From a virus (Duplodnaviria > Heunggongvirae > Uroviricota > Caudoviricetes): a stretch of 8,042 nucleotides of DNA. The notes below the pieces were generated by a model. It was not told where the DNA came from. It worked only from the letters and a program-made list of their open reading frames with translations, and ran no database searches. Position numbers and translations under genes: made by a program. This document shows, in pieces, positions 1-8,042 of the stretch. Location of the stretch: positions 1 to 8,042 of IMG/VR virus record IMGVR_UViG_2693429662_000023; one strand, written 5' to 3'. Every line of letters starts with the position of its first letter. The first letter of the stretch is position 1.

Positions 1-1242
1 ATGGCGAGAAAAACACACCCATTAACCACAGTGCAGATCAAAGCAGCCAGACCAGCGCAAAAGGAGTACACCCTGCAGGACGGCGGAGGGCTTTTTCTCC
101 TGGTCAAACCGTCTGGATCAAAACTCTGGAGATTTTCCTACTACCGACCATCGGACAAAAAAAGAATATTGCTGAGTTTTGGATCGCTTGAAGATGTTTC
201 CCTGGCTGATGTCAGAAAACGCCGTAGCGAGTACAGGACGTTAATCAGTGCCGGAACTGACCCGCAGGACCACGAGAGGCAAAAAAGAGAGACAGAGGCC
301 CGAAGACAAGGGAACACGTTCGAAAATGTGGCGGCGGCATGGTACCAGGTGAAAATCAGCCAGAATCTGGCCCCCAACACGATTAAAGACATCTGGCGTT
401 CGCTGGATAAATATGTATTCCCGTTCATCGGCAACACGCCAATAGATACCCTCACCGCCCGAAGGTTCGTTGAAGTGCTTACCCCCATCAAGGAGCGCGG
501 CAACCTGGAAACACTCAAGCGGGTTTTACAGCGCGTTAATGAGGTAATGGATTACGCCGCCAACAGTGGGCTGATTGATGCCAATCCGGCTATGAATGTG
601 CGTAAGGCGTTTCCCTCACCTGTAAAAAAACATATGCCAACAATCCGCCCCGAACAGCTGCCGGAGCTTATGCAGGCTTTATCAGTATCGGCAACAGAAC
701 GGCAGACCAGATTACTGATTGAATGGCAGTTACTGACCGTAACCCGTCCCGCCGAAGCGTCATCAACGCGGTGGGATGAAATCAACCTGGACGCGAAGCA
801 ATGGACGATACCTGCCGGACGTATGAAGATGCGCAGGGATCACGTTATCCCGCTTTCCGGTCAGGCTATGGCGGTGCTGGAGGCCATGAAACCAATCAGC
901 CACCACCGCAATTACGTTTTCCCAAGTCTGAAAGACCCACAGCAGCCGATGAACAGCCAGACAGCTAACGCAGCATTGCGGCGTATGGGATTCGCTGGCG
1001 TGCTGGTGTCTCATGGATTACGCGCCATATTCAGCACAGCAGCGAACGAGGAAGGATTCGAGCCGGACGTAATAGAGGCGGCACTTGCCCACGTCGACAC
1101 CAACGAAGTTAGACGGGCATACAACCGGAGCAACTACATAGAAAAACGCATCGTGCTGATGCGCTGGTGGGGCGAATTTGTCGAGGCTGCGGCGACGGGC
1201 GTAACCCTCGCCAGTGGTAAAAGGGGTATCCGAGCCGTGTAG
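1..1242 (+). CDS. int: Tyrosine site-specific integrase (P4-type phage integrase family)
   Basis: 413-aa ORF starting at nt 1 with ATG. C-terminal region carries SHGLRAIF (His-x-x-Arg) and RAYNRSNY (candidate catalytic Tyr) with spacing typical of tyrosine recombinases, plus a basic N-terminal arm-like region. Followed by an AlpA gene, as in P4-like satellites and PICIs. The att site and any tRNA would lie upstream of the window. Confidence 0.9.
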   Translation: MARKTHPLTTVQIKAARPAQKEYTLQDGGGLFLLVKPSGSKLWRFSYYRPSDKKRILLSFGSLEDVSLADVRKRRSEYRTLISAGTDPQDHERQKRETEARRQGNTFENVAAAWYQVKISQNLAPNTIKDIWRSLDKYVFPFIGNTPIDTLTARRFVEVLTPIKERGNLETLKRVLQRVNEVMDYAANSGLIDANPAMNVRKAFPSPVKKHMPTIRPEQLPELMQALSVSATERQTRLLIEWQLLTVTRPAEASSTRWDEINLDAKQWTIPAGRMKMRRDHVIPLSGQAMAVLEAMKPISHHRNYVFPSLKDPQQPMNSQTANAALRRMGFAGVLVSHGLRAIFSTAANEEGFEPDVIEAALAHVDTNEVRRAYNRSNYIEKRIVLMRWWGEFVEAAATGVTLASGKRGIRAV

Positions 1243-1289
1243 CTGTACAGAAAACCAGTAAAAACTACGAAAACCATGTAAAACCGTCG

Positions 1290-1295
1290 TATAAT
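1290..1295 (+). promoter_or_regulatory. Candidate sigma70 -10 hexamer (TATAAT) upstream of small ORF; no good -35
   Basis: Perfect TATAAT at 1290-1295 in the AT-rich int-alpA intergenic region. The -35 region is weak (gaaaac-like). Confidence 0.25.
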
Positions 1296-1319
1296 TGCAT
1301 CAAATTTAACGACAAGGCT

Positions 1320-1571
1320 GTGAAACATGAAACCGTTAAGATGCAAAAAAATATCAGATGCAATTGCGACGGGCTGCAACTGGCCCTGATGGTTCAGCAT
1401 GAATTTTGGTCAACCTACGATCCAGAGGACAGAACGACGGCCCCATCAAAAAAACAGGTAGTAGACTTTCTGGTATCCCGTGGCGCTTCCAGAAATCTGG
1501 CGGTAAGTATTGATAAGGTCGTACGTCCGGCATCTATGAAGATCGGAGGCAGGCCCAAAAAATGGCGGTAA
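1320..1571 (+). CDS. Hypothetical small protein (83 aa from GTG 1320; alternative starts ATG 1341 or ATG 1399)
   Basis: ORF ends at TAA 1569-1571, 10 nt before a strong intrinsic terminator. Basic C-terminus (KIGGRPKKWR) resembles an AT-hook. No convincing Shine-Dalgarno for any of the starts, so a non-coding transcript is also possible. Confidence 0.3.
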   Translation: MKHETVKMQKNIRCNCDGLQLALMVQHEFWSTYDPEDRTTAPSKKQVVDFLVSRGASRNLAVSIDKVVRPASMKIGGRPKKWR

Positions 1572-1581
1572 CAATCCTAGA

Positions 1582-1605
1582 AGCGGCAGAAATGCCGCTT
1601 TTTTT
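1582..1605 (+). terminator. Rho-independent terminator
   Basis: Stem AGCGGCA (1582-1588), loop GAAA, stem TGCCGCT (1593-1599), then T-run 1599-1605. Confidence 0.7.
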
Positions 1606-1720
1606 ATAATTCCATTTCAAATCATCAATATAAAAAACGGTGTATACCGTTTAAAAACGGTGGGAACTGTTTTTACCCATATCCGATGATTTACCGTATT
1701 TGTCACCGGAATACACCGGA
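1605..1720 (+). promoter_or_regulatory. alpA upstream control region with -10 like hexamer and operator-like repeats
   Basis: TATAAT at 1605-1610. Direct repeat AAAAACGGTG at 1633-1642 and 1653-1662. Near-palindrome CGGTGTATACCG at 1638-1649. Direct repeat CACCGGA at 1704-1710 and 1714-1720, which is an inverted relative of the GGTGTAT motif. Confidence 0.4.
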
Positions 1721-1738
1721 TTCACAAGGTAAATCACG

Positions 1739-1945
1739 ATGGAAGCAATCAGAAAAATTATCTTTCGCCAGGAAGTAAAAAAAATTATCCACATCAAGGC
1801 AGACAGCACGCTGCAAAGCATGATCAACGCCGGAGAATTTCCGCAAGGTTTTCGCGTTGGTTTACGCCGTCGCGGATGGTATGAGGATGATGTGTTGGCC
1901 TGGCAGAAAGAACGCGAACAGGAAGCACGCGGAACGGCTGCTTAA
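1739..1945 (+). CDS. alpA: AlpA-family transcriptional regulator (prophage CP4-57-type, excisionase-like HTH)
   Basis: 68-aa ORF with SD-like AAGGT 9 nt upstream. Sequence IIFRQEVKKIIHIKADSTLQSMINAGEFPQGFRVGLRRRGWYEDDVLAWQ matches the AlpA pattern (LR..EV...S.ST.Y.LI..G.FP.P..LG.R.VGW...EV..W). Its position directly after a P4-type integrase is typical. Confidence 0.85.
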   Translation: MEAIRKIIFRQEVKKIIHIKADSTLQSMINAGEFPQGFRVGLRRRGWYEDDVLAWQKEREQEARGTAA

Positions 1946-1971
1946 CGGGTATCACAGATATGACAAACACG

Positions 1972-2004
1972 AAAAAAGCGGCCCCGATATGGAGCCGCCT
2001 TTCT
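1972..2004. terminator. Candidate bidirectional terminator hairpin
   Basis: Stem GCGGC (1978-1982) pairs with GCCGC (1994-1998). It is flanked by A6 (1972-1977), which reads as T6 on the minus strand, and by CTTTCT (1999-2004) on the plus strand. Stronger as a terminator for the minus-strand transcript. Confidence 0.4.
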
Positions 2005-2093
2005 GAACAATTAACCCGCTGCGCCTTATGTGTATGTGATCCCAAACATAAGCACGGGGATGATAGCCGCTATCAGGCTGGTGGGCAATGCAA

Positions 2094-2270
2094 TCAGTCT
2101 GGTTCAGTTCGTTGCCATAACTGCGAAGCTCTCTCCTTTGATGAGTATTCTTTAAGGTACTTCTCAAGGGCAAAAGAACACGGCGCGAATCGTTCTGATT
2201 CATGCTCTTTCTTTCTGCGTCGTCTTTTTCGTGCAGGTGATGTTTTTTTGGTTGATTCTTCGTTGGTCAT
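2094..2270 (-). CDS. Hypothetical small basic protein (58 aa), in-frame continuation downstream of the RHH gene
   Basis: Minus-strand ATG at 2270 to TGA at 2096-2094, just under the 60-aa cutoff of the ORF track. Translation by hand: MTNEESTKKTSPARKRRRRKKEHESERFAPCSFALEKYLKEYSSKERASQLWQRTEPD. It is in the same frame as the RHH gene, separated by one TAA and 57 nt of open frame. SD is weak (AGG). Confidence 0.3.
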   Translation of the reverse strand: MTNEESTKKTSPARKRRRRKKEHESERFAPCSFALEKYLKEYSSKERASQLWQRTEPD

Positions 2271-2327
2271 TGTGTGCGCCTGTAAAGCAATGCGCCGTAG
2301 TACCTCACACCACGGCGCTGGTGATGG

Positions 2328-2507
2328 TTACTCCTGCTCTTTGGCCTTGCGGCGCTGGCGGCGTTTGATTTCGCCTTTAACGGCAGTAACTATAAATTGC
2401 GCTTTGCTTTCACCTTCATCTAAATTTTTTTCTAAGTCTGCAACAACATCATGCGGGAATCTGGCATTTAACTGTTGCGACTTATTATTTGTTGAACCTG
2501 TTGCCAT
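2328..2507 (-). CDS. Ribbon-helix-helix (Arc/CopG-like) DNA-binding protein, 59 aa
   Basis: Start chosen at ATG 2507 with GAGGA 7 nt upstream (minus strand). Product MATGSTNNKSQQLNARFPHDVVADLEKNLDEGESKAQFIVTAVKGEIKRRQRRKAKEQE has a beta-strand/helix/helix pattern typical of RHH repressors and antitoxins, then a basic tail. The 114-aa ORF in the track is an unsupported 5' extension. Confidence 0.6.
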   Translation of the reverse strand: MATGSTNNKSQQLNARFPHDVVADLEKNLDEGESKAQFIVTAVKGEIKRRQRRKAKEQE

Positions 2508-2528
2508 TACTGAATCCTCTCTAAGTTG

Positions 2529-2661
2529 GTGCGATTCAGTATACACAAAAAAATTCAGAGAAAAAGGCTTGAAGTGCGATTCACTTGCTGATAGGTTAAA
2601 AACAGATGGTGCGATGCACCAAATAACAACGCCCCGCAGTGCGGGAACACATACGGGGCGT
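2529..2661. promoter_or_regulatory. Divergent control region with three GTGCGAT(T/G)CA repeats and nested palindromes
   Basis: GTGCGATTCA at 2529-2538 and 2574-2583, GTGCGATGCA at 2609-2618. Two copies are palindromic: AAGTGcgatTCACTT (2572-2586) and GGTGCgatGCACC (2608-2620). Palindrome CCCGCAgTGCGGG at 2633-2645 is nested within ACGCCCCG/CGGGGCGT arms (2629-2661). Confidence 0.4.
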
Positions 2662-2690
2662 CTAACCAACAACGTAAACTAGGAGCCGTT

Positions 2691-2888
2691 ATGGTTGCCG
2701 TAAATCATATACCACACCTTGTACACACACAAACGGCCTTTGTGTGGCGTTTTCTGGCCCTGAGTGCCGGAGAATCTCAAATCATCCACGTAACCGCCTG
2801 GACGGAACGCGAAGCGCGTAGCCGTTGCCCGTCCGGTTGTGTTGCTGTATTCGCCGCCCGTATTCGTCAGGGGGGGGGCCATGCCTGA
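2691..2888 (+). CDS. Hypothetical protein (65 aa), possibly the N-terminal part of a frameshift-split gene
   Basis: ATG 2691 preceded by AGGAG (2681-2685) with a 5-nt spacer. Ends ...RIRQGGGHA at TGA 2886-2888, immediately after a G9 tract, and overlaps the next start (ATGCCTGA). Confidence 0.4.
   Translation: MVAVNHIPHLVHTQTAFVWRFLALSAGESQIIHVTAWTEREARSRCPSGCVAVFAARIRQGGGHA
2870..2878. repeat. G9 homopolymer tract at an ORF junction
   Basis: Nine consecutive G at 2870-2878, read directly from the sequence, in the context CAGGGGGGGGGCC. Confidence 0.95.
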
Positions 2889-3201
2889 TATGTCAAATTA
2901 CCAGTACCTGATTAATCCGCATTTTAACTGTGAGCATGATATTGCTAAAAAGGTTTATTCCGCTGCGGATGGGGCTACTGACAATATATCAATGGCTGTT
3001 GCGTCAATTGGTAGCCTGATGTGGCATGCGTCAGAAAATGAGGACTATGACGAAAAGGCCATGCGCATTGATATGGGTAATATTGGTTTGTTACTGGCAA
3101 TGCTTGGACATTTTGATATTTCGTTACGGTGCACCATTGAAAATGCCACAGATGCATTAAATGCTATAAAGAAAGCGAATACTGATTCAAATCGGGGATA
3201 A
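2881..3201 (+). CDS. Hypothetical acidic protein (106 aa)
   Basis: ATG 2881 directly after the G9 tract (alternative ATG 2890). Product MPDMSNYQYLINPHFNCEHD... has no motif I recognise. Sits in an operon-like arrangement with the flanking ORFs. Confidence 0.5.
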   Translation: MPDMSNYQYLINPHFNCEHDIAKKVYSAADGATDNISMAVASIGSLMWHASENEDYDEKAMRIDMGNIGLLLAMLGHFDISLRCTIENATDALNAIKKANTDSNRG

Positions 3202-3207
3202 ATAATC

Positions 3208-3507
3208 ATGAGAACATATTTATCTGGCTTGACTGCCAGCGGTTATGCACACCCCCAAATTATCCCCGGCGCTATTTATCTGGATAAGAACGGTAACAGA
3301 GTAACGGTAAAAGAACTGATGTTTGACCGTGTGTATTTTATTCGTGATGGCTATTCATTTCATAGTTCGCTGAACGTGGAGATCTTTATTAGCAGATTCA
3401 GGCGGGAAATCCCGCTTTCCAGAAAAAACCATGTGTCACGTGTGAATGTGGATAAAAAACTACAGGAACTGAAAAACATGATTGCCGCGTGGAGAGAGCA
3501 GAAATGA
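3208..3507 (+). CDS. Hypothetical basic protein (99 aa)
   Basis: ATG 3208 with GGGGA 9 nt upstream. Stop TGA 3505-3507 overlaps the primase ATG 3504 (ATGA overlap), suggesting translational coupling. Confidence 0.55.
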   Translation: MRTYLSGLTASGYAHPQIIPGAIYLDKNGNRVTVKELMFDRVYFIRDGYSFHSSLNVEIFISRFRREIPLSRKNHVSRVNVDKKLQELKNMIAAWREQK

Positions 3508-5321
3508 AAAAAGCGCCAAATTTAAAACACCAGCCGCGTGACAAAATGACGGAAGTCATCATTTTTGCGGGTAGTGATGCGTGGGCACATGCGAAGCAGT
3601 GGCAGGAACAGGACGGGCGACTGGCTGGCGATAACGTGCCTCCTGTCTGGCTTGGAGAGCAACAACTTGCCGAACTGGACAACCTGCAAATCGTACCGGA
3701 CGGACGCTATCGCGTGCGTCTCTATCAGGCGGGGTTATTGCGTCCGGGGCTTGTTAATACCATCGGGCAGAAACTGGCAGCGGCAGGTGTCAGGGATGCT
3801 GATTATTACTCTGAAGGAATGCACAGCCAGAAACGGGAGAACTGGCGCGAATATCTGGAACGTGAACGGGCAGAGCTGGCGGAAAAGAAAAAGGTAGTTG
3901 AACTGCCTGTAAAGAAAAAAGAGCGGGTAAAAGACGATAACGCTTCATCACTGGCGCTTAACCAGATGGGAGCAAGTCAACGCGGCGAAGTTCTCCTGGC
4001 ACATTATGGCGGTGAACTGGCGATTCATGCTGACTCTGACACTGTTCACCATTACAACGGCGTTGTATGGGAGCCAGTACAGGATAAAGAATTACAGCGA
4101 GCTATGGCACAGATTTTCATTGATGCGGAGATCAGCTATTCGCAGAACGCCATTAAATCGGCGGTCGATACCATGAAGTTAAGTTTGCCTGTAATGGGGA
4201 ATACAGCCCGTAACCTGATTGGATTCAGTAACGGGGTATTTGATACCAGAACAGGTAATTTTCGGGAGCATAACAAAAACGACTGGTTGTTAATTGCCAG
4301 TGAATTACCTTTCAGCCCACCAGCAGAGGGGGAAACGCTGGCAACACATGCGCCGAATTTCTGGAAGTGGTTACGCCGTTCGGTGGCTGAGAATGACCGC
4401 AAGGCGGATCGCGTACTGGCTGCATTATTCATGGTGCTGGCGAACCGGTACGACTGGCAGTTATTCATTGAGGTAACAGGTCCAGGGGGAAGTGGTAAAA
4501 GCGTGATGGCGGAGATTTGCACCATGCTGGCGGGTAAGGCCAACACAGTATCGGCAAGCATGAAGGCGCTGGAAGATGCAAGGGAACGCGCGTTAGTGGT
4601 TGGCTTTTCGCTGATTATCATGCCGGATATGACCCGCTACGCTGGTGATGGGGCAGGAATTAAGGCCATTACAGGCGGTGACAAGGTGGCAATTGATCCG
4701 AAACACAAAGCCCCCTACTCAACGCGTATTCCGGCAGTAGTGCTGGCGGTTAACAATAACGCCATGTCATTCAGTGACCGCAGCGGGGGGATCTCACGTC
4801 GTCGGGTGATATTCAATTTTTCGGAAGTTGTACCGGAGAACGAACGCGATCCAATGCTGGCGGAAAAAATAGAAGGTGAGCTGGCGGTAGTGATTCGCCA
4901 TCTGCTTACACGGTTTGCTGACCAGGACGAAGCCAGACGCCTGTTATATGAGCAGCAGAAATCTGAAGAAGCACTGGCGATAAAGCGAGAGGGGGATTCG
5001 CTGGTGGACTTCTGCGGCTATCTCATGGCGTCGGTAATGTGTGATGGCCTGTTAGTGGGTAATGCTGAAATTGTGCCATTCAGCCCACGCAGGTATCTCT
5101 ATCATGCCTATCTGGCTTATATGAGGGCACATGGGTTTGGTAAACCTGTAACACTGACGCGCTTCGGTAAAGATATGCCGGGGGCAATGGCGGAATATGG
5201 CAGGGAGTATATGAAACGGAAAACGAAGCACGGTTTGCGTTCAAACGTGACACTGACGGAGGAATCAGAAGACTGGATGCCATCATGTGTATCGGTCACT
5301 AATGACGATAGCAAAAATTAA
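3504..5321 (+). CDS. Replication protein: D5_N/primase-C-terminal-like domain fused to SF3 helicase (P4 alpha-like pri-rep)
   Basis: Start ATG 3504 with GGAGAG 7 nt upstream (the track's GTG 3489 is an alternative). Walker A motif GPGGSGKS encoded near 4480-4503. Upstream segment ...GFSNGVFDTRTGNFREH... resembles the D5_N region of P4-family primase/helicases. An iteron origin lies immediately downstream. Confidence 0.9.
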   Translation: MKKAPNLKHQPRDKMTEVIIFAGSDAWAHAKQWQEQDGRLAGDNVPPVWLGEQQLAELDNLQIVPDGRYRVRLYQAGLLRPGLVNTIGQKLAAAGVRDADYYSEGMHSQKRENWREYLERERAELAEKKKVVELPVKKKERVKDDNASSLALNQMGASQRGEVLLAHYGGELAIHADSDTVHHYNGVVWEPVQDKELQRAMAQIFIDAEISYSQNAIKSAVDTMKLSLPVMGNTARNLIGFSNGVFDTRTGNFREHNKNDWLLIASELPFSPPAEGETLATHAPNFWKWLRRSVAENDRKADRVLAALFMVLANRYDWQLFIEVTGPGGSGKSVMAEICTMLAGKANTVSASMKALEDARERALVVGFSLIIMPDMTRYAGDGAGIKAITGGDKVAIDPKHKAPYSTRIPAVVLAVNNNAMSFSDRSGGISRRRVIFNFSEVVPENERDPMLAEKIEGELAVVIRHLLTRFADQDEARRLLYEQQKSEEALAIKREGDSLVDFCGYLMASVMCDGLLVGNAEIVPFSPRRYLYHAYLAYMRAHGFGKPVTLTRFGKDMPGAMAEYGREYMKRKTKHGLRSNVTLTEESEDWMPSCVSVTNDDSKN

Positions 5322-5334
5322 ACTTATGGAATAA

Positions 5335-5563
5335 CTGTTCACCACTGTTCACCCTGTTATAAATATCTTTTATATCAGTATATTATAGGGTGAACAGTTA
5401 TTTATGAACTGTTCACCAAACTATTCACTGTTCACCTTTTTGATTGTTTATTGAGCTTCAAGGGTGAACAGTGGTGAACAGTTGGTGAATAGTTTTTGTG
5501 AAACTGTTCACCCCTTAACATTATGAATTAAAAGATAAAATATCAAAAGGTGAACAGGTGAAG
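5335..5563. repeat. Iteron-type replication origin
   Basis: Nine perfect copies of CTGTTCACC or its complement GGTGAACAG: 5335-5343, 5345-5353, 5389-5397, 5409-5417, 5428-5436, 5463-5471, 5473-5481, 5504-5512, 5549-5557. Degenerate copies include CTGTTAT (5354-5360), CTATTCAC (5421-5428) and GGTGAATAG (5484-5492). AT-rich spacers at 5358-5388 and 5515-5548 could be unwinding elements. Confidence 0.8.
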
Positions 5564-5654
5564 GGTTAAAACGCAAAAATTTTAATTTACTGCTGTGAGA
5601 TAAAGCCTATGACAGCGAAGCACATAAAAAAAATCACAATCGCACGCCCTTGAT

Positions 5655-5849
5655 TTGACGGAACACTGGTTAAGGGTGTCGATAAAAATCATCGACCGCA
5701 ACGCCGGGGAAGGATATGCGAAAGCACATCCCGAACTGATTAGCGCATTCATGACCACGACGGCGGCAAACTTTGCCACGCTGACAGAACGGGAGATTGC
5801 CGAAGCGGAACAGGTAACAACCATCAACGTTAAAAGCGCTGGAGAATAA
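5655..5849 (+). CDS. Hypothetical small ORF (64 aa from TTG; internal ATG at 5751) or non-coding transcript
   Basis: ORF ends TAA 5847-5849, 19 nt before a strong terminator. No usable SD for any in-frame start, so coding status is doubtful. Confidence 0.25.
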   Translation: MTEHWLRVSIKIIDRNAGEGYAKAHPELISAFMTTTAANFATLTEREIAEAEQVTTINVKSAGE

Positions 5850-5867
5850 CCGAAGTAGTGAACACAT

Positions 5868-5891
5868 AGCCGGAGCAATCCGGCTTTTTTT
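5868..5891 (+). terminator. Rho-independent terminator
   Basis: Stem AGCCGGA (5868-5874), loop GCAA, stem TCCGGCT (5879-5885), then T7 run 5885-5891. Confidence 0.7.
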
Positions 5892-5925
5892 CGATCTCGC
5901 ATATCTTAAAAAATGGTTGATTGAT

Positions 5926-5931
5926 TATAAT
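5926..5931 (+). promoter_or_regulatory. Candidate -10 hexamer (TATAAT) for the downstream two-gene operon
   Basis: Perfect TATAAT at 5926-5931 within TTGATTGATTATAAT, about 50 nt upstream of GTG 5980. The -35 is weak. Confidence 0.3.
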
Positions 5932-5979
5932 CTATCGAAAATACTGATTATTAGATGATAAGCATCAGGAGGAAACAAA

Positions 5980-6174
5980 GTGGAACAGATAAAGCAAAGC
6001 GCTACCGTGATGATTGATCACGAGATCCTAAACGAGCTTAAAAAACTTCAATTCGATGTTATTCGCCGGATGAATGAAGCTGGTATATACGGCAGAGCCG
6101 CCACGCCAACAGTAGGCCATCTTGCTCGCGTGCTGTTACGCGAACGCCTGGGCATTGCAACAGGTGAGGAATAA
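5980..6174 (+). CDS. Small putative DNA-binding protein (64 aa; RHH-like or HTH-like)
   Basis: GTG start with AGGAGG (5966-5971) 8 nt upstream. Product MEQIKQSATVMIDHEILNELKKLQFDVIRRMNEAGIYGRAATPTVGHLARVLLRERLGIATGEE has a strand-helix-helix pattern. The fold assignment is tentative. Confidence 0.55.
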   Translation: MEQIKQSATVMIDHEILNELKKLQFDVIRRMNEAGIYGRAATPTVGHLARVLLRERLGIATGEE

Positions 6175-6176
6175 CA

Positions 6177-6338
6177 ATGGCTATCACAGAACGCGAGGCA
6201 AGCATCATTAAAGCCATTGGCGAGGAAACAAGAGACACGATAGCGCCATTAATGGAAAAGATCGCAGAGCTTGAGAGACGAATAAACAAGCTGAGTGATG
6301 AAGTTGAAGGCCTGATCTCGTTACTCGGTGAGCAATGA
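6177..6338 (+). CDS. Small charged coiled-coil protein (53 aa)
   Basis: Not in the ORF track because it is under 60 aa. ATG 6177 sits 2 nt after the upstream stop, with GAGGA (6166-6170) 6 nt upstream. Translated by hand: MAITEREASIIKAIGEETRDTIAPLMEKIAELERRINKLSDEVEGLISLLGEQ, with a heptad-like hydrophobic pattern. Confidence 0.5.
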   Translation: MAITEREASIIKAIGEETRDTIAPLMEKIAELERRINKLSDEVEGLISLLGEQ

Positions 6339-6400
6339 CAGGGGGGGGGAGTGTTCCGGCCGGAAAGTCGATCGCCCTGGACACCGCCCCCCGTCTCATT
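6339..6400. promoter_or_regulatory. GC-rich palindromic element containing a second G9 tract
   Basis: G9 at 6341-6349 in the same CAGGGGGGGGG context as the tract at 2870. Perfect palindrome TTCCGGCCGGAA at 6354-6365 and CGATCG at 6369-6374. Arm GGGGGGGAGTGT is near-complementary to ACACCGCCCCCC (6381-6392). No T-run follows, so it is not a canonical intrinsic terminator. Confidence 0.4.
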
Positions 6401-6422
6401 CGTAGAAAATTTTGCTTTTCAA

Positions 6423-6445
6423 AAAAGTTACACGAAAAGTTACAC
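6423..6445 (+). repeat. Tandem direct repeat AAAAGTTACAC x2 (12-bp period) upstream of terS
   Basis: AAAAGTTACAC at 6423-6433 and 6435-6445, about 25 nt upstream of the terS ATG. Confidence 0.6.
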
Positions 6446-6467
6446 CCCCTCAAAACGAGGTTTTTGC

Positions 6468-6956
6468 ATGGCATTAACGACCAAAAAAAAGCGGTTTGCT
6501 GATGCGTTATCAAGGGGCGCAAATCCCACGGAAGCCGCTATACATGCGGGATACAGCGAAAAGACCGCAAGGGTCAAAGGCTGGCAGCTATCCAACGATC
6601 CTGAGGTGAAAAAGTATCTTAAGGCTGTAACTCCTGATGTAACTTTTCAGGTTACAAAACCGAAAAAAGTTACAAAGAAAGTTACCGAAAAAGTTACACC
6701 GGAACGGGCATCAATTAACACCATTGAGATGATGGATAACGGCCTACCCGACCCCATCAAAGCAATGGGCAGGATACTGATTGACAACATGGACACAGAT
6801 CCAAAACTGGCTTTAGATGCCGCGTTTAAGCTGGCCCAGTTCACCCACCGCAAGATCGGCAGCATTGGGAAAAAAGAGGTTAAAAAACTCAATGCCGCTA
6901 GTGTCTACTCAAATCGGTTCCCCATCCCTAAGCCACCAACAGACTTAAAACACTGA
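6468..6956 (+). CDS. terS: Terminase small subunit (P27/Terminase_2-like, N-terminal HTH)
   Basis: Start ATG 6468 chosen over the track's GTG 6351, which would translate the GC-rich palindrome. N-terminus MALTTKKKRFADALSRGANPTEAAIHAGYSEKTARVKGWQL matches the TerS HTH pattern (K.KRF...Y...N.T.AA..AGYS.KTA). Contains a KVTKKVTEKVT repeat insert. Confidence 0.75.
   Translation: MALTTKKKRFADALSRGANPTEAAIHAGYSEKTARVKGWQLSNDPEVKKYLKAVTPDVTFQVTKPKKVTKKVTEKVTPERASINTIEMMDNGLPDPIKAMGRILIDNMDTDPKLALDAAFKLAQFTHRKIGSIGKKEVKKLNAASVYSNRFPIPKPPTDLKH
6627..6697. repeat. 12-bp periodic GTAAC/GTTAC repeat array inside terS (candidate pac or TerS-binding site)
   Basis: GTAAC at 6627 and 6639. GTTAC at 6651, 6669, 6681 and 6693, with spacings of 12, 12, 18, 12 and 12 bp. 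Same core as the upstream AAAAGTTACAC repeats. Confidence 0.5.
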
Positions 6957-6967
6957 GGTAGCGAACT

Positions 6968-7129
6968 ATGAGCGAATACATCACAGACCCTATTGATGTA
7001 CTCACGGAAATCATGAACGACAAGCAGCAGTCGACCGAAATACGGTTACAGGCCGCCGCTGTTCTGATGCCATATTTTCACGAAACACTAAACCCGTGCT
7101 TCCAGGAGGAGGAAGAAGATGATCTGTAA
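6968..7129 (+). CDS. Small protein (53 aa) resembling the C-terminal segment of TerS, with acidic tail
   Basis: ATG 6968 with GAGG 9 nt upstream. Translated by hand: MSEYITDPIDVLTEIMNDKQQSTEIRLQAAAVLMPYFHETLNPCFQEEEEDDL. Aligns by eye with TerS residues DPIKAMGRILIDNMDTDPKLALDAAFKLAQFTH (shared DPI...I..D.......AA.....F.H). Overlaps the capsid gene start by 11 nt. Confidence 0.45.
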   Translation: MSEYITDPIDVLTEIMNDKQQSTEIRLQAAAVLMPYFHETLNPCFQEEEEDDL

Positions 7130-8042
7130 AAACATGAAAGGCGTGTCAGCAGTTCGCGCCGCCAGCGTGCTGGCATCGTGTAAATTTAGCCATGCTGACG
7201 CTATAGAGATGACGAAAAGAAATGATCCGGCAGTATCGTTATTTCTTGAAAAATCCGTAGTAGCAGGAATGAACACGGATAACATGCCGTCGCTGGTGGC
7301 AGAGCCGATAGTAAGAGAGCTTGGCGAGTATATTTTTTCGCAGTCTGTACCAGGCAAGCTAATCAGCAGCGCGCTAAATCTTCCTTTTGGCGCAAAATTG
7401 CAGTCAATATCAGGCAAGGGCAGTAAATGGCTTAAAGAAGCCGAAGAAATCCCTGTCAAAGAGGGAGAAGTAAACGAAAGTGCGCTAAAACTGTGCAAAC
7501 TTGGCGCTATTGTGATGCTGAATAACGAGCTAATCAAATTTAGCACCCCTGGTACAAATTCAGCGATCAGAGACTTGATCACATCGGAATCGGTGAAAGA
7601 AATAGATAAAAAATTTCTTTCCAGTGACCAGGAGGTGGCTGGCGTATCCCCTGAGGGCGTGCTTAATGGTGCTGATGAGGCCGAAAACTTCATAGAGCTT
7701 TTCAAAAAGCACATAGCGAACGGTAACACGCTTTCCACGTCGTCGCTAATCTTGCCCGTAGAAAACGCCTTACAGCTTACTGATGCTGAGTTCTGGCAGA
7801 TAGAGCTTTTGAGAATACCGGTAATTGTGAGCGAACAGGCGGATCGCATGATGCTGATAGACGCTCAAAAGCTGATTATTAACGTTGAAGCCACGGTTAT
7901 AACCCCAACTGATGAGGCGGTAATAAAAACCGAATCAGGGGCGGTTAGCCTTTTCCAGAATGACGCTACAGCGTTCAGGGCAATCACCTATTGCGGATGG
8001 CAAAAACTCGATAAGGCCGTCACCGTTCTGGCGAAAAGCTGA
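7119..8042 (+). CDS. Major capsid protein, HK97 fold (Phage_capsid family), 307 aa
   Basis: ATG 7119 preceded by AGGAGGAGGAAG. Internal motif EIDKKFLSSDQEVAGVSPEGVLNGA and C-terminal LFQNDATAFRAITYCGWQKLDKAVTVL match hallmark HK97-family capsid motifs (..ID.aFl.GdG...P.GlLN.. and ..F..D.tAfRa..R.......AfvvL). Stop TGA at 8040-8042 coincides with the window end. Confidence 0.7.
   Translation: MICKNMKGVSAVRAASVLASCKFSHADAIEMTKRNDPAVSLFLEKSVVAGMNTDNMPSLVAEPIVRELGEYIFSQSVPGKLISSALNLPFGAKLQSISGKGSKWLKEAEEIPVKEGEVNESALKLCKLGAIVMLNNELIKFSTPGTNSAIRDLITSESVKEIDKKFLSSDQEVAGVSPEGVLNGADEAENFIELFKKHIANGNTLSTSSLILPVENALQLTDAEFWQIELLRIPVIVSEQADRMMLIDAQKLIINVEATVITPTDEAVIKTESGAVSLFQNDATAFRAITYCGWQKLDKAVTVLAKS

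Follow-up and report, generated by a model that had tools for sequence, protein, structure and literature searches.

Gene content of the operon and its putative control region

The 8,042-nt stretch analyzed here (the window; positions 1 to 8,042 of IMG/VR record IMGVR_UViG_2693429662_000023, from a virus of the Caudoviricetes) carries three small open reading frames (ORFs), orf65, orf106, and orf99, directly upstream of a primase-helicase gene, here called the replicase. Judged by its gene order, the window is a satellite of E. coli phages of the Gram-negative phage-inducible chromosomal island (PICI) type, or more broadly of the PICI/P4-like type. We give somewhat better than even chances to the view that this satellite has an early (induction/replication) operon with the three ORFs at its promoter-proximal end, that this operon is a version of the P1/P4-type cassette without the C4 RNA, and that it is gated in the way proposed below. 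The features concerned are as follows.

2328-2507, minus strand: gene for a YlcI/YnfO-family protein (NF041551) of 59 amino acids (aa), divergent from the operon
2529-2538, 2574-2583, and 2609-2618: three 10-bp repeats GTGCGAT(T/G)CA, putative operators
2569-2597, plus strand: putative operon promoter, with -35 TTGAAG (2569-2574) and, 17 nt further on, a weak -10 TAGGTT (2592-2597)
2630-2660, plus strand: leader stem-loop CGCCCCG...CGGGGCG, followed by TCTAACCAACAACG and the Shine-Dalgarno (SD) sequence AGGAG (2681-2685)
2691-2888, plus strand: orf65, Icd-like (NF033153), first ORF of the operon
2870-2878, plus strand: G9 homopolymer within the last orf65 codons, doubling as an SD-like stretch for orf106
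2881-3201, plus strand: orf106, acidic protein of 106 aa (phrog_15327), predicted two-helix hairpin
3208-3507, plus strand: orf99, basic protein of 99 aa, DUF4222 (PF13973), RgdR family
3504-5321, plus strand: replicase of 605 aa, a D5_N/P4-family primase-helicase (Pfam D5_N, Pox_D5, and DUF5906; phrog_864)
3504-3923, plus strand: N-terminal domain (N-domain) of the replicase, first ~140 aa, matching only phrog_2850, which has no assigned function
5335-5560, both orientations: iteron cluster GGTGAACAG / CTGTTCACC, at least ten copies, just past the replicase gene
2847-5835, plus strand: mosaic block comprising the 3' end of orf65 with the G9 run, orf106, orf99, the replicase, and the probable origin, 99.8% identical to locus L015

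Conserved geometry of the block

The arrangement of this block is far beyond chance. The start of orf106 overlaps the stop of orf65 by 8 nt (ATGCCTGA, 2881-2888), and the start of the replicase overlaps the stop of orf99 by 4 nt (ATGA, 3504-3507). The original prediction for this DNA gave the ORFs and both overlaps at the positions where we find them, the G9 run is present as well, and its description of an acidic orf106 and a basic orf99 agrees with calculated isoelectric points (pI) of 4.78 and 10.13, respectively. It had also spoken of overlapping stop and start codons, which is correct for these two junctions; at the third, 6 nt separate orf106 from orf99.

A scan of IMG/VR for relatives yielded 77 loci, and in 76 of them the anatomy is invariant. 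The orf106 protein has 106 aa and overlaps the upstream ORF by 8 nt in 76/76 relatives; the DUF4222 gene follows exactly 6 nt after orf106 in 75 loci and is 99 aa long, ending in ATGA, in 73/73; and the replicase N-domain begins at the ATG of this ATGA in 72 of 73. Among close relatives, the ratio of nonsynonymous to synonymous substitution rates (dN/dS) is mostly <1, a value with few substitutions behind it. The comparison of gene neighborhoods that had been suggested as a check thus bears out the proposal of a tightly packed, probably coupled operon that runs into a satellite primase-helicase, since the coupling geometry is strongly conserved. Equivalents of the 8-nt overlap are found in P4 (GTGCGTAA), where the Icd-like ORF runs into epsilon, in Sakai Sp7 (ATGCTTAA), in L006 (ATGGCTGA), and in L009 (ATGCGTAA); the P1 icd/ant1 overlap measures 4 nt.

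Families of the three small proteins

None of the three proteins had been credited with an assignable motif in the original prediction, which had also held that clear homology to known regulators would speak against its view of them. Two of the three fall into named families, and one of these contains a known regulator. orf65 (65 aa; calculated pI, 10.26) matches the NCBIfam model of Icd-like proteins, NF033153, over residues 17 to 60 (64.7 bits; cutoff, 25; E = 5.8e-18), as well as phrog_1743, phrog_6196, and phrog_29966. It is a short leader ORF with its stop overlapping the next start, as is typical of the Icd family, and 63 of its 65 residues (97%) are identical to ECs_1577 of Sakai Sp7, also known as CP-933C/OI-51 or the capsid-forming PICI (cf-PICI) EcCIEDL933. 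By these matches orf65 belongs to the Icd-like family, and a role in division inhibition is suggested by family membership and published genetics. The idea that orf65 arose from the long Ash/Icd form of L001 by a deletion private to the window was rejected, as EcCIEDL933 and L005 have the same 65-aa gene.

orf99 matches Pfam DUF4222 (PF13973; 60.5 bits; gathering score, 27; E = 1.1e-16). One member of this family has been studied, RgdR, a protein of 99 aa with a pI of 10.09 and weak, nonspecific DNA binding (PMC3378721) that activates LEE1 and represses motility (PMC3378721; PMC10877973). orf99 is homologous to RgdR (ECs1581) over the full length at 31% identity (E = 3e-13). The two also share their location: in Sakai, ECs_1581 lies directly upstream of the "primase" ECs_1582 with a 4-nt overlap, so that orf99, like RgdR, is a basic protein of ~99 aa whose gene overlaps the replicase of a P4-like/PICI element.

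Only orf106 is without a named family. It matches phrog_15327, a PHROG without assigned function, and no model of Pfam, NCBIfam, or PADLOC. A word-indexed search retrieved 19 clusters, essentially all from E. coli, and when 1.84 billion representatives were searched exhaustively with a profile, only 22 proteins emerged, including about ten remote relatives of ~100 aa at 23 to 40% identity. With these remote homologues, AlphaFold 2 gave a model with helices at residues 19 to 51 and 58 to 104 and a predicted local distance difference test score (pLDDT) of 80.9; with close homologues only, pLDDT was 51 and the model unusable. The remote relatives occupy the equivalent slot in other satellites, either after an Icd-like ORF or one small ORF further. 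Downstream of them come one or two small ORFs that overlap by 4 nt, and then the replicase (AAA_25 or DUF927). In L009, the ORF that precedes the orf106 homologue is not Icd-like. orf106 represents a small uncharacterized family that is confined to this slot. In the place of orf106, Sakai Sp7 (L012, 22691-23299) has three unrelated small ORFs of 61, 63, and 80 aa, the first of which starts in the 8-nt overlap; the Icd-like gene that it overlaps is the one with 97% identity to orf65. The slot directly behind the Icd-like ORF is therefore exchangeable.

In broader searches, the PDB sequence search gave no match for orf65, orf106, orf99, or the YlcI-type protein; tblastn against phage records gave one match for orf65 and none for orf106 or orf99; and a single-protein locus search of one-genome-per-species contigs found no locus.

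Replicase, probable origin, and the mosaic block

The replicase scores 95 bits against the P4 primase model TIGR01613, below the cutoff of 108.7. Its N-domain is 95% identical to that of the L004 DUF927 protein and 70% identical to that of ECs_1582, with nothing alignable beyond; the remaining ~560 residues of the DUF927-type replicases that share the N-domain are unrelated to those of the window. Among the IMG/VR loci, the replicase body is of the P4 type in 59 and of the DUF927 type in 13. The N-domain always accompanies the DUF4222 gene. The iteron cluster at 5335-5560 is the probable origin of replication, and its placement agrees with that of described PICI origins (PMC6092414).

Positions 2847-5835 are 99.8% identical to L015 (IMGVR_UViG_2654587792_000035), and the likeness is confined to this interval; upstream of 2847, L015 differs in the Icd body, the leader, and the YlcI allele. 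The inherited unit therefore consists of orf106, orf99, the replicase, and the origin. Its left joint falls in a conserved stretch at the very end of the Icd-like gene (the final ~14 codons), which resembles a hinge for recombination between an immunity module and a replication module.

Putative upstream control region

The divergent gene at 2328-2507 encodes a protein that matches NF041551 (63.3 bits; cutoff, 30; E = 1.6e-17), and its relatives are annotated as YlcI/YnfO. Its residues suggest a ribbon-helix-helix pattern. All three 10-bp repeats lie in the 180-bp spacer between this gene and the operon, the middle copy between the putative -35 and -10 elements. In relatives with other YlcI alleles, which show 54 to 58% identity with differences mainly near the N terminus, other repeats occur at equal 45-bp spacing (GTGGCTGACA in L001 and GTGTGTATCA in L006), and in L004 the YlcI-type protein and the repeat are both identical to those of the window. 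Because the repeat sequence covaries with the YlcI allele, we infer an allele-specific repressor/operator set. The repeats of L002 are of a TGTAAG type. On these grounds the YlcI-type protein is a candidate operator-binding repressor of the operon and a candidate master repressor for a class of Gram-negative PICIs, for which no such repressor has been described; according to the literature, the global repressor of Gram-negative PICIs is unclear, and the cycle is activated by helper-induced AlpA (PMC6092414). The position of the putative promoter is homologous to that of TTGACG-17-TAATAT in L001 and TTGACA-17-TACTAT in L005.

The leader stem-loop is found at the equivalent place in seven relatives, with weak covariation (compensatory changes in two of nine pairs). 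On the minus strand, the 85 nt at 2622-2706 have a fold z score of -3.6, with a stem-loop and then a T-rich tail. The single match returned by Rfam lies on this strand and is SymR-like and subthreshold (E = 0.48). That a cis-antisense RNA covers the orf65 ribosome-binding site is conceivable and unproven; no convincing conserved promoter for an antisense RNA ending at the leader hairpin was found inside orf65, and the T-tails are poor in several relatives.

Apart from this match, Rfam, with RF01695, RF03163, and RF01394 included, gave none at E ≤ 1 for the whole window and none at E ≤ 10 for 2300-3000, and the possibility of a hidden C4/CI RNA in the leader was dropped after these searches. 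Rfam does find C4, isrK, and c4-a1b1 directly upstream of the Icd-like ORF in P4, L001, and L005, and returns nothing of the kind in the window, L004, L002, L006, or Sp7. With blastn, C4 RNA was detected in only 6 of the 77 IMG/VR loci, leaving 71 without it. Where present, the immunity RNA cassette spans 10116-10314 in L001, 7886-8090 in L005, and 8420-8705 in P4 (L013); it consists of c4-a1b1 targets, an isrK-like terminator, and the C4 antisense RNA, within a pseudogene designated "ash family" by the Prokaryotic Genome Annotation Pipeline (PGAP).

Element context

The remaining landmarks of the window are these.

1-1242: integrase gene (int), at the start of the window
1739-1945: gene for an AlpA-like helix-turn-helix (HTH) protein (phrog_66, E = 5.5e-7; the Pfam AlpA match is weak, 17.6 bits against a cutoff of 21)
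about 6468-6956: small terminase gene (terS), downstream of the iterons
7119 onward: major capsid gene

The ORF list thus reads int, AlpA-like gene, primase-helicase, iteron origin, terS, and capsid, the layout of Gram-negative PICIs and cf-PICIs (int - alpA - pri/rep - iteron ori - packaging genes, all pointing the same way). PICIs are described as islands of ~9 to 15 kb at a tRNA or other att site. The homologous island L001, with int, HTH, primase, terS, and capsid genes, adjoins tRNA-Pro, and the homologous island of E. coli O157:H7 NE1092-2, of identical gene order, lies between tRNA-Pro and yejO. An ORF of 240 aa at 1960-2682 (plus strand) overlaps the YlcI-type gene on the opposite strand. 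Because relatives have a PGAP pseudogene ("missing C-terminus") there, this ORF probably represents a remnant rather than a gene. Some part of 1700-3600 is matched in 1,706 of 5,426 complete E. coli genomes, and parts of the three-gene block are present in 461 to 647 of them.

A proposed model for gating of the early operon

We propose the following sequence of events. In the integrated state, the weak sigma-70 promoter at ~2569-2597 would be kept off, likely by the YlcI/YnfO-type protein bound to the three 10-bp repeats. Helper-phage-dependent induction via AlpA, as expected from homology to EcCICFT073 and EcCIEDL933, would lead to transcription of the operon. Ribosomes translating the Icd-like leader ORF would terminate inside the start of orf106, and those translating orf99 would terminate inside the start of the replicase. 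The conserved geometry suggests that the downstream genes, including the replicase, are in this way expressed only as the first ORF is translated, much as P1 ant depends on icd. The Icd-like protein may transiently block host cell division or growth, a role based on family membership and on published genetics (described under the alternatives), which agree with a growth arrest linked to induction. orf99, as an RgdR-type weak DNA binder inherited together with the replicase N-domain, probably modulates either transcription or the initiation of replication. More speculatively, orf106 could be a helical-hairpin adaptor that binds proteins, in the slot where P1 and P4 have anti-repressors.

A number of observations weigh against this model. 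A consensus promoter scan made no call for 2569-2597, the -10 being weak, and for this reason the promoter counts as inferred. Among solved or annotated DNA-binding proteins, Pfam and PDB searches found no homologue of the YlcI-type protein. Each start codon in the block is preceded by an SD-like purine run of its own, so that coupling may be partial. Fold and sequence searches with orf106 turned up nothing more specific than a generic helical hairpin, and hhalign detected no similarity to P4 epsilon, orf151, or ORF106 (probabilities of 0.06 to 0.2%, including the test of orf99); likewise, orf99 showed no similarity to P4 ORF106. Residues 20 to 22 of orf99 are P20-G21-A22, where RgdR has the Arg-Gly-Asp (RGD) motif that is important for its activity, and the published phenotypes of RgdR concern virulence genes of the host rather than replication. 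Finally, one orf99 allele is found both with N-domains of about 97% identity and with N-domains of about 76%, which makes the covariation of orf99 and N-domain imperfect.

The most far-reaching form of this proposal is tentative and on the unlikely side: a subset of PICIs would be controlled by an allele-specific YlcI/YnfO-type master repressor acting on three operators, beside AlpA and in place of the C4/CI RNA, with the co-inherited trio of orf106, DUF4222 protein, and replicase N-domain as a hitherto unrecognized unit that controls initiation. If this were true, orf106, as a new family of helical hairpins, and the RgdR-type protein would bind the common N-domain whatever catalytic replicase body follows, and the effects of RgdR on virulence genes would be side effects of a replication/transcription cofactor.

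Alternative explanations

The module might instead be primarily a device for abortive infection or superinfection exclusion, in which a phage protein triggers the Icd-like protein and its partners to kill or arrest the cell. The suppressor genetics of two strains argue for such a function (Silas et al., bioRxiv 10.1101/2023.04.06.535777). In ECOR61, the transposon insertions that suppress the death triggered by phage orf24 hit an Icd-like gene and the two small ORFs next to it, and death needs six linked genes, the primase included; in a P4 prophage of ECOR15, death triggered by Abc1 maps to int, alpA, an Icd-like ORF, an ORF of 321 nt, and the primase. In contrast, P1 and P4 use this cassette in normal life cycle control, and none of the operon genes matched a PADLOC model (seven window proteins against the defense models of PADLOC-DB 2.0, E ≤ 0.01). 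The original prediction had placed the genes in an accessory slot for regulators or for anti-helper and defense cargo. What survives of that idea is the presence of other small ORFs for orf106 in EcCIEDL933; orf106, orf99, and the replicase N-domain form a conserved core and not a variable hotspot. Moreover, insertions in the first ORF of a tightly coupled operon would be polar on the replicase. The death phenotype may therefore reflect satellite induction or runaway replication that is itself toxic, and uncontrolled replication of EcCICFT073 is known to impair growth (PMC6092414). This suggests that where published "programmed cell death" phenotypes map to Icd-like ORFs, their cause may be polarity within a coupled replication operon. 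On balance we consider a primary role in abortive infection unlikely, while noting that it is compatible with the gated early operon that we favor and that the two are not mutually exclusive.

Somewhat more doubtful is the notion that orf106 is a helper-directed anti-repressor, an analogue of P4 epsilon or P1 Ant that is made by coupled translation and derepresses or otherwise manipulates a helper prophage. P1 and P4 each have, coupled to the Icd-like ORF, a gene for an anti-repressor or helper derepression protein; orf106 is small and acidic and is predicted to form a protein-binding helical hairpin; and the unrelated small ORFs in the EcCIEDL933 slot are what would be expected of helper-specific factors. 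However, the hhalign probability of orf106 against epsilon is 0.1%, and the fold matches are generic only. Furthermore, orf106 is nearly invariant despite differing regulators and travels with the replicase block rather than the immunity block, and the published direction is that the helper phage induces AlpA, not the reverse.

It is improbable that orf65 and orf106 are a toxin/neutralizer pair serving addiction or buffering, with the acidic orf106 neutralizing a toxic Icd-like protein. The two genes are coupled by the 8-nt overlap, their products are oppositely charged, and natural in-frame fusions of the Icd-like ORF with orf106 occur in two different Icd alleles (P0001, 171 aa; P0003, 166 aa; and P0057; the fused genes include L002 439-954 and L003 889-1404). 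Loss of one G from the common junction allele (G5 to G4; GGGTGTGCC), seen in two independent read assemblies, produces such a fusion of 166 to 171 aa, and the existence of these proteins implies that fusion is tolerated. Yet the EcCIEDL933 Icd-like protein precedes an unrelated ORF, the orf106 homologue of L009 follows a non-Icd ORF, the recombination breakpoint parts the Icd body from orf106, and no match to a toxin-antitoxin or PADLOC family was obtained.

The G tract

The G9 run reaches the homopolymer length of at least 8 nt by which contingency loci are recognized, and the original prediction had spoken of a phase-variable-looking tract. The spacer between CAG and the orf106 ATG is 10 nt in 76/76 IMG/VR loci, including both other carriers of G9. 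Its alleles are GGGGTGTGCC in 49 loci, GGGGTGTTCC in 6, GGGGGGTGCC and GAGGTGTGCC in 5 each, GGGGTATGCC in 4, and GGGGGGGGCC in 2 and in the window. G5 is thus present in 49, G7 in 5, and G9 in 2 (L015 and L019) of the 77 loci, and the G7 and G9 alleles derive by T>G substitution from the usual sequence at the junction, GGGGGTGTGCC. Among the 461 complete E. coli genomes that span the junction, the best full-length matches are 97.8% identical, differing by two T>G changes only. That G9 is private to the window is true among these complete genomes but was ruled out by L015 and L019. G9 is the end of a substitution series G5, G7, G9; it passes on together with the block and does not vary in length, so that phase variation here is possible in principle but unsupported. 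Slippage that toggles between separate and fused Icd-like and orf106 proteins, or switches coupling on and off, is very improbable as the function of the tract: a run of nine G's is intrinsically prone to slip, a -1 slip in the window would fuse orf65 to orf106 much as in the natural fusions, and a +1 slip would add 13 codons to orf65 and put its stop 30 nt beyond the orf106 start, but the alleles arose by substitution and the spacer length is constant, the G5-to-G4 assemblies mentioned above notwithstanding.

Relation to known satellites and phages

The block is real, conserved, and for the most part already catalogued; it will not surprise specialists in phage satellites, and a public sequence is 99.8% identical to the window over the whole block. 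What is left as new are orf106, the candidate repressor/operator set, and the link between a PICI early operon and the Icd cassette of P1 and P4. Although about a tenth of complete E. coli genomes carry the block, its genes are drawn as white "hypothetical" boxes. It is also present in the prototype islands EcCICFT073 and EcCIEDL933. These are the two elements for which helper-phage-dependent induction and transfer are shown in the literature, and AlpA is required for the induction of both.

EcCICFT073 and EcCIEDL933 share with the window the order int - alpA - ... - pri - ori - packaging genes. EcCIEDL933 (Sakai Sp7) is, in addition, similar in detail, with its Icd-like gene (97%), its 99-aa DUF4222 protein gene that overlaps the replicase start by 4 nt, and its replicase N-domain (70%). 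It differs in having three other small ORFs in place of orf106, in lacking a YlcI-type gene, and in a replicase body that is DUF927 and not D5_N, while its RgdR is only 31% identical to orf99, which has no RGD. The "superinfection exclusion" locus of an ECOR61 prophage likewise combines an Icd-like ORF, overlapping small ORFs, and a primase in one block, which according to published genetics arrests growth once triggered; its Icd-like protein, unlike orf65, has a long N-terminal extension.

The left operon of P4 consists of the CI RNA, the Icd-like "cI ORF," epsilon, orf151, ORF106, and the alpha primase. The "cI ORF" carries an Icd-like domain at residues 85 to 132 (NF033153; E = 7.8e-21) and has a PHROG in common with orf65, and its stop overlaps by 8 nt the GTG start of epsilon, the helper derepression protein. 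P4 thus resembles the window as a satellite with an AlpA/Vis-like gene upstream, an 8-nt overlap into a protein of ~100 aa, further small ORFs, and a primase-helicase. In contrast to P4, the window has no CI/C4 RNA, and orf106 and orf99 bear no similarity to epsilon, orf151, or P4 ORF106.

A comparable logic is seen in the immI region of P1 (c4 RNA - icd - ant1/ant2), in which a small ORF of the Icd family likewise comes first, its stop overlapping the next start, and icd is annotated as "apparently required for expression of ant" (P1 record; PMC8201110). The order in P1 is a1/b1 targets, c4 RNA, a2/b2 targets, icd, and ant1/2, followed by the kilA-repL replication module. The window differs from it in having neither a C4 antisense RNA nor a/b target sites, in a gene after the Icd-like ORF that is not Ant, in an overlap of 8 nt where P1 has 4 nt, and in an operon that continues into the replicase. 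Judged by these features, the window operon corresponds to the P1 and P4 cassette without its C4 RNA. The parallel ties PICIs to P4 beyond Int, AlpA, and Pri, the three proteins noted before (PMC6092414), offers RgdR, hitherto known only as a virulence regulator, a native role, and supplies a testable logic for the gating of satellite replication.

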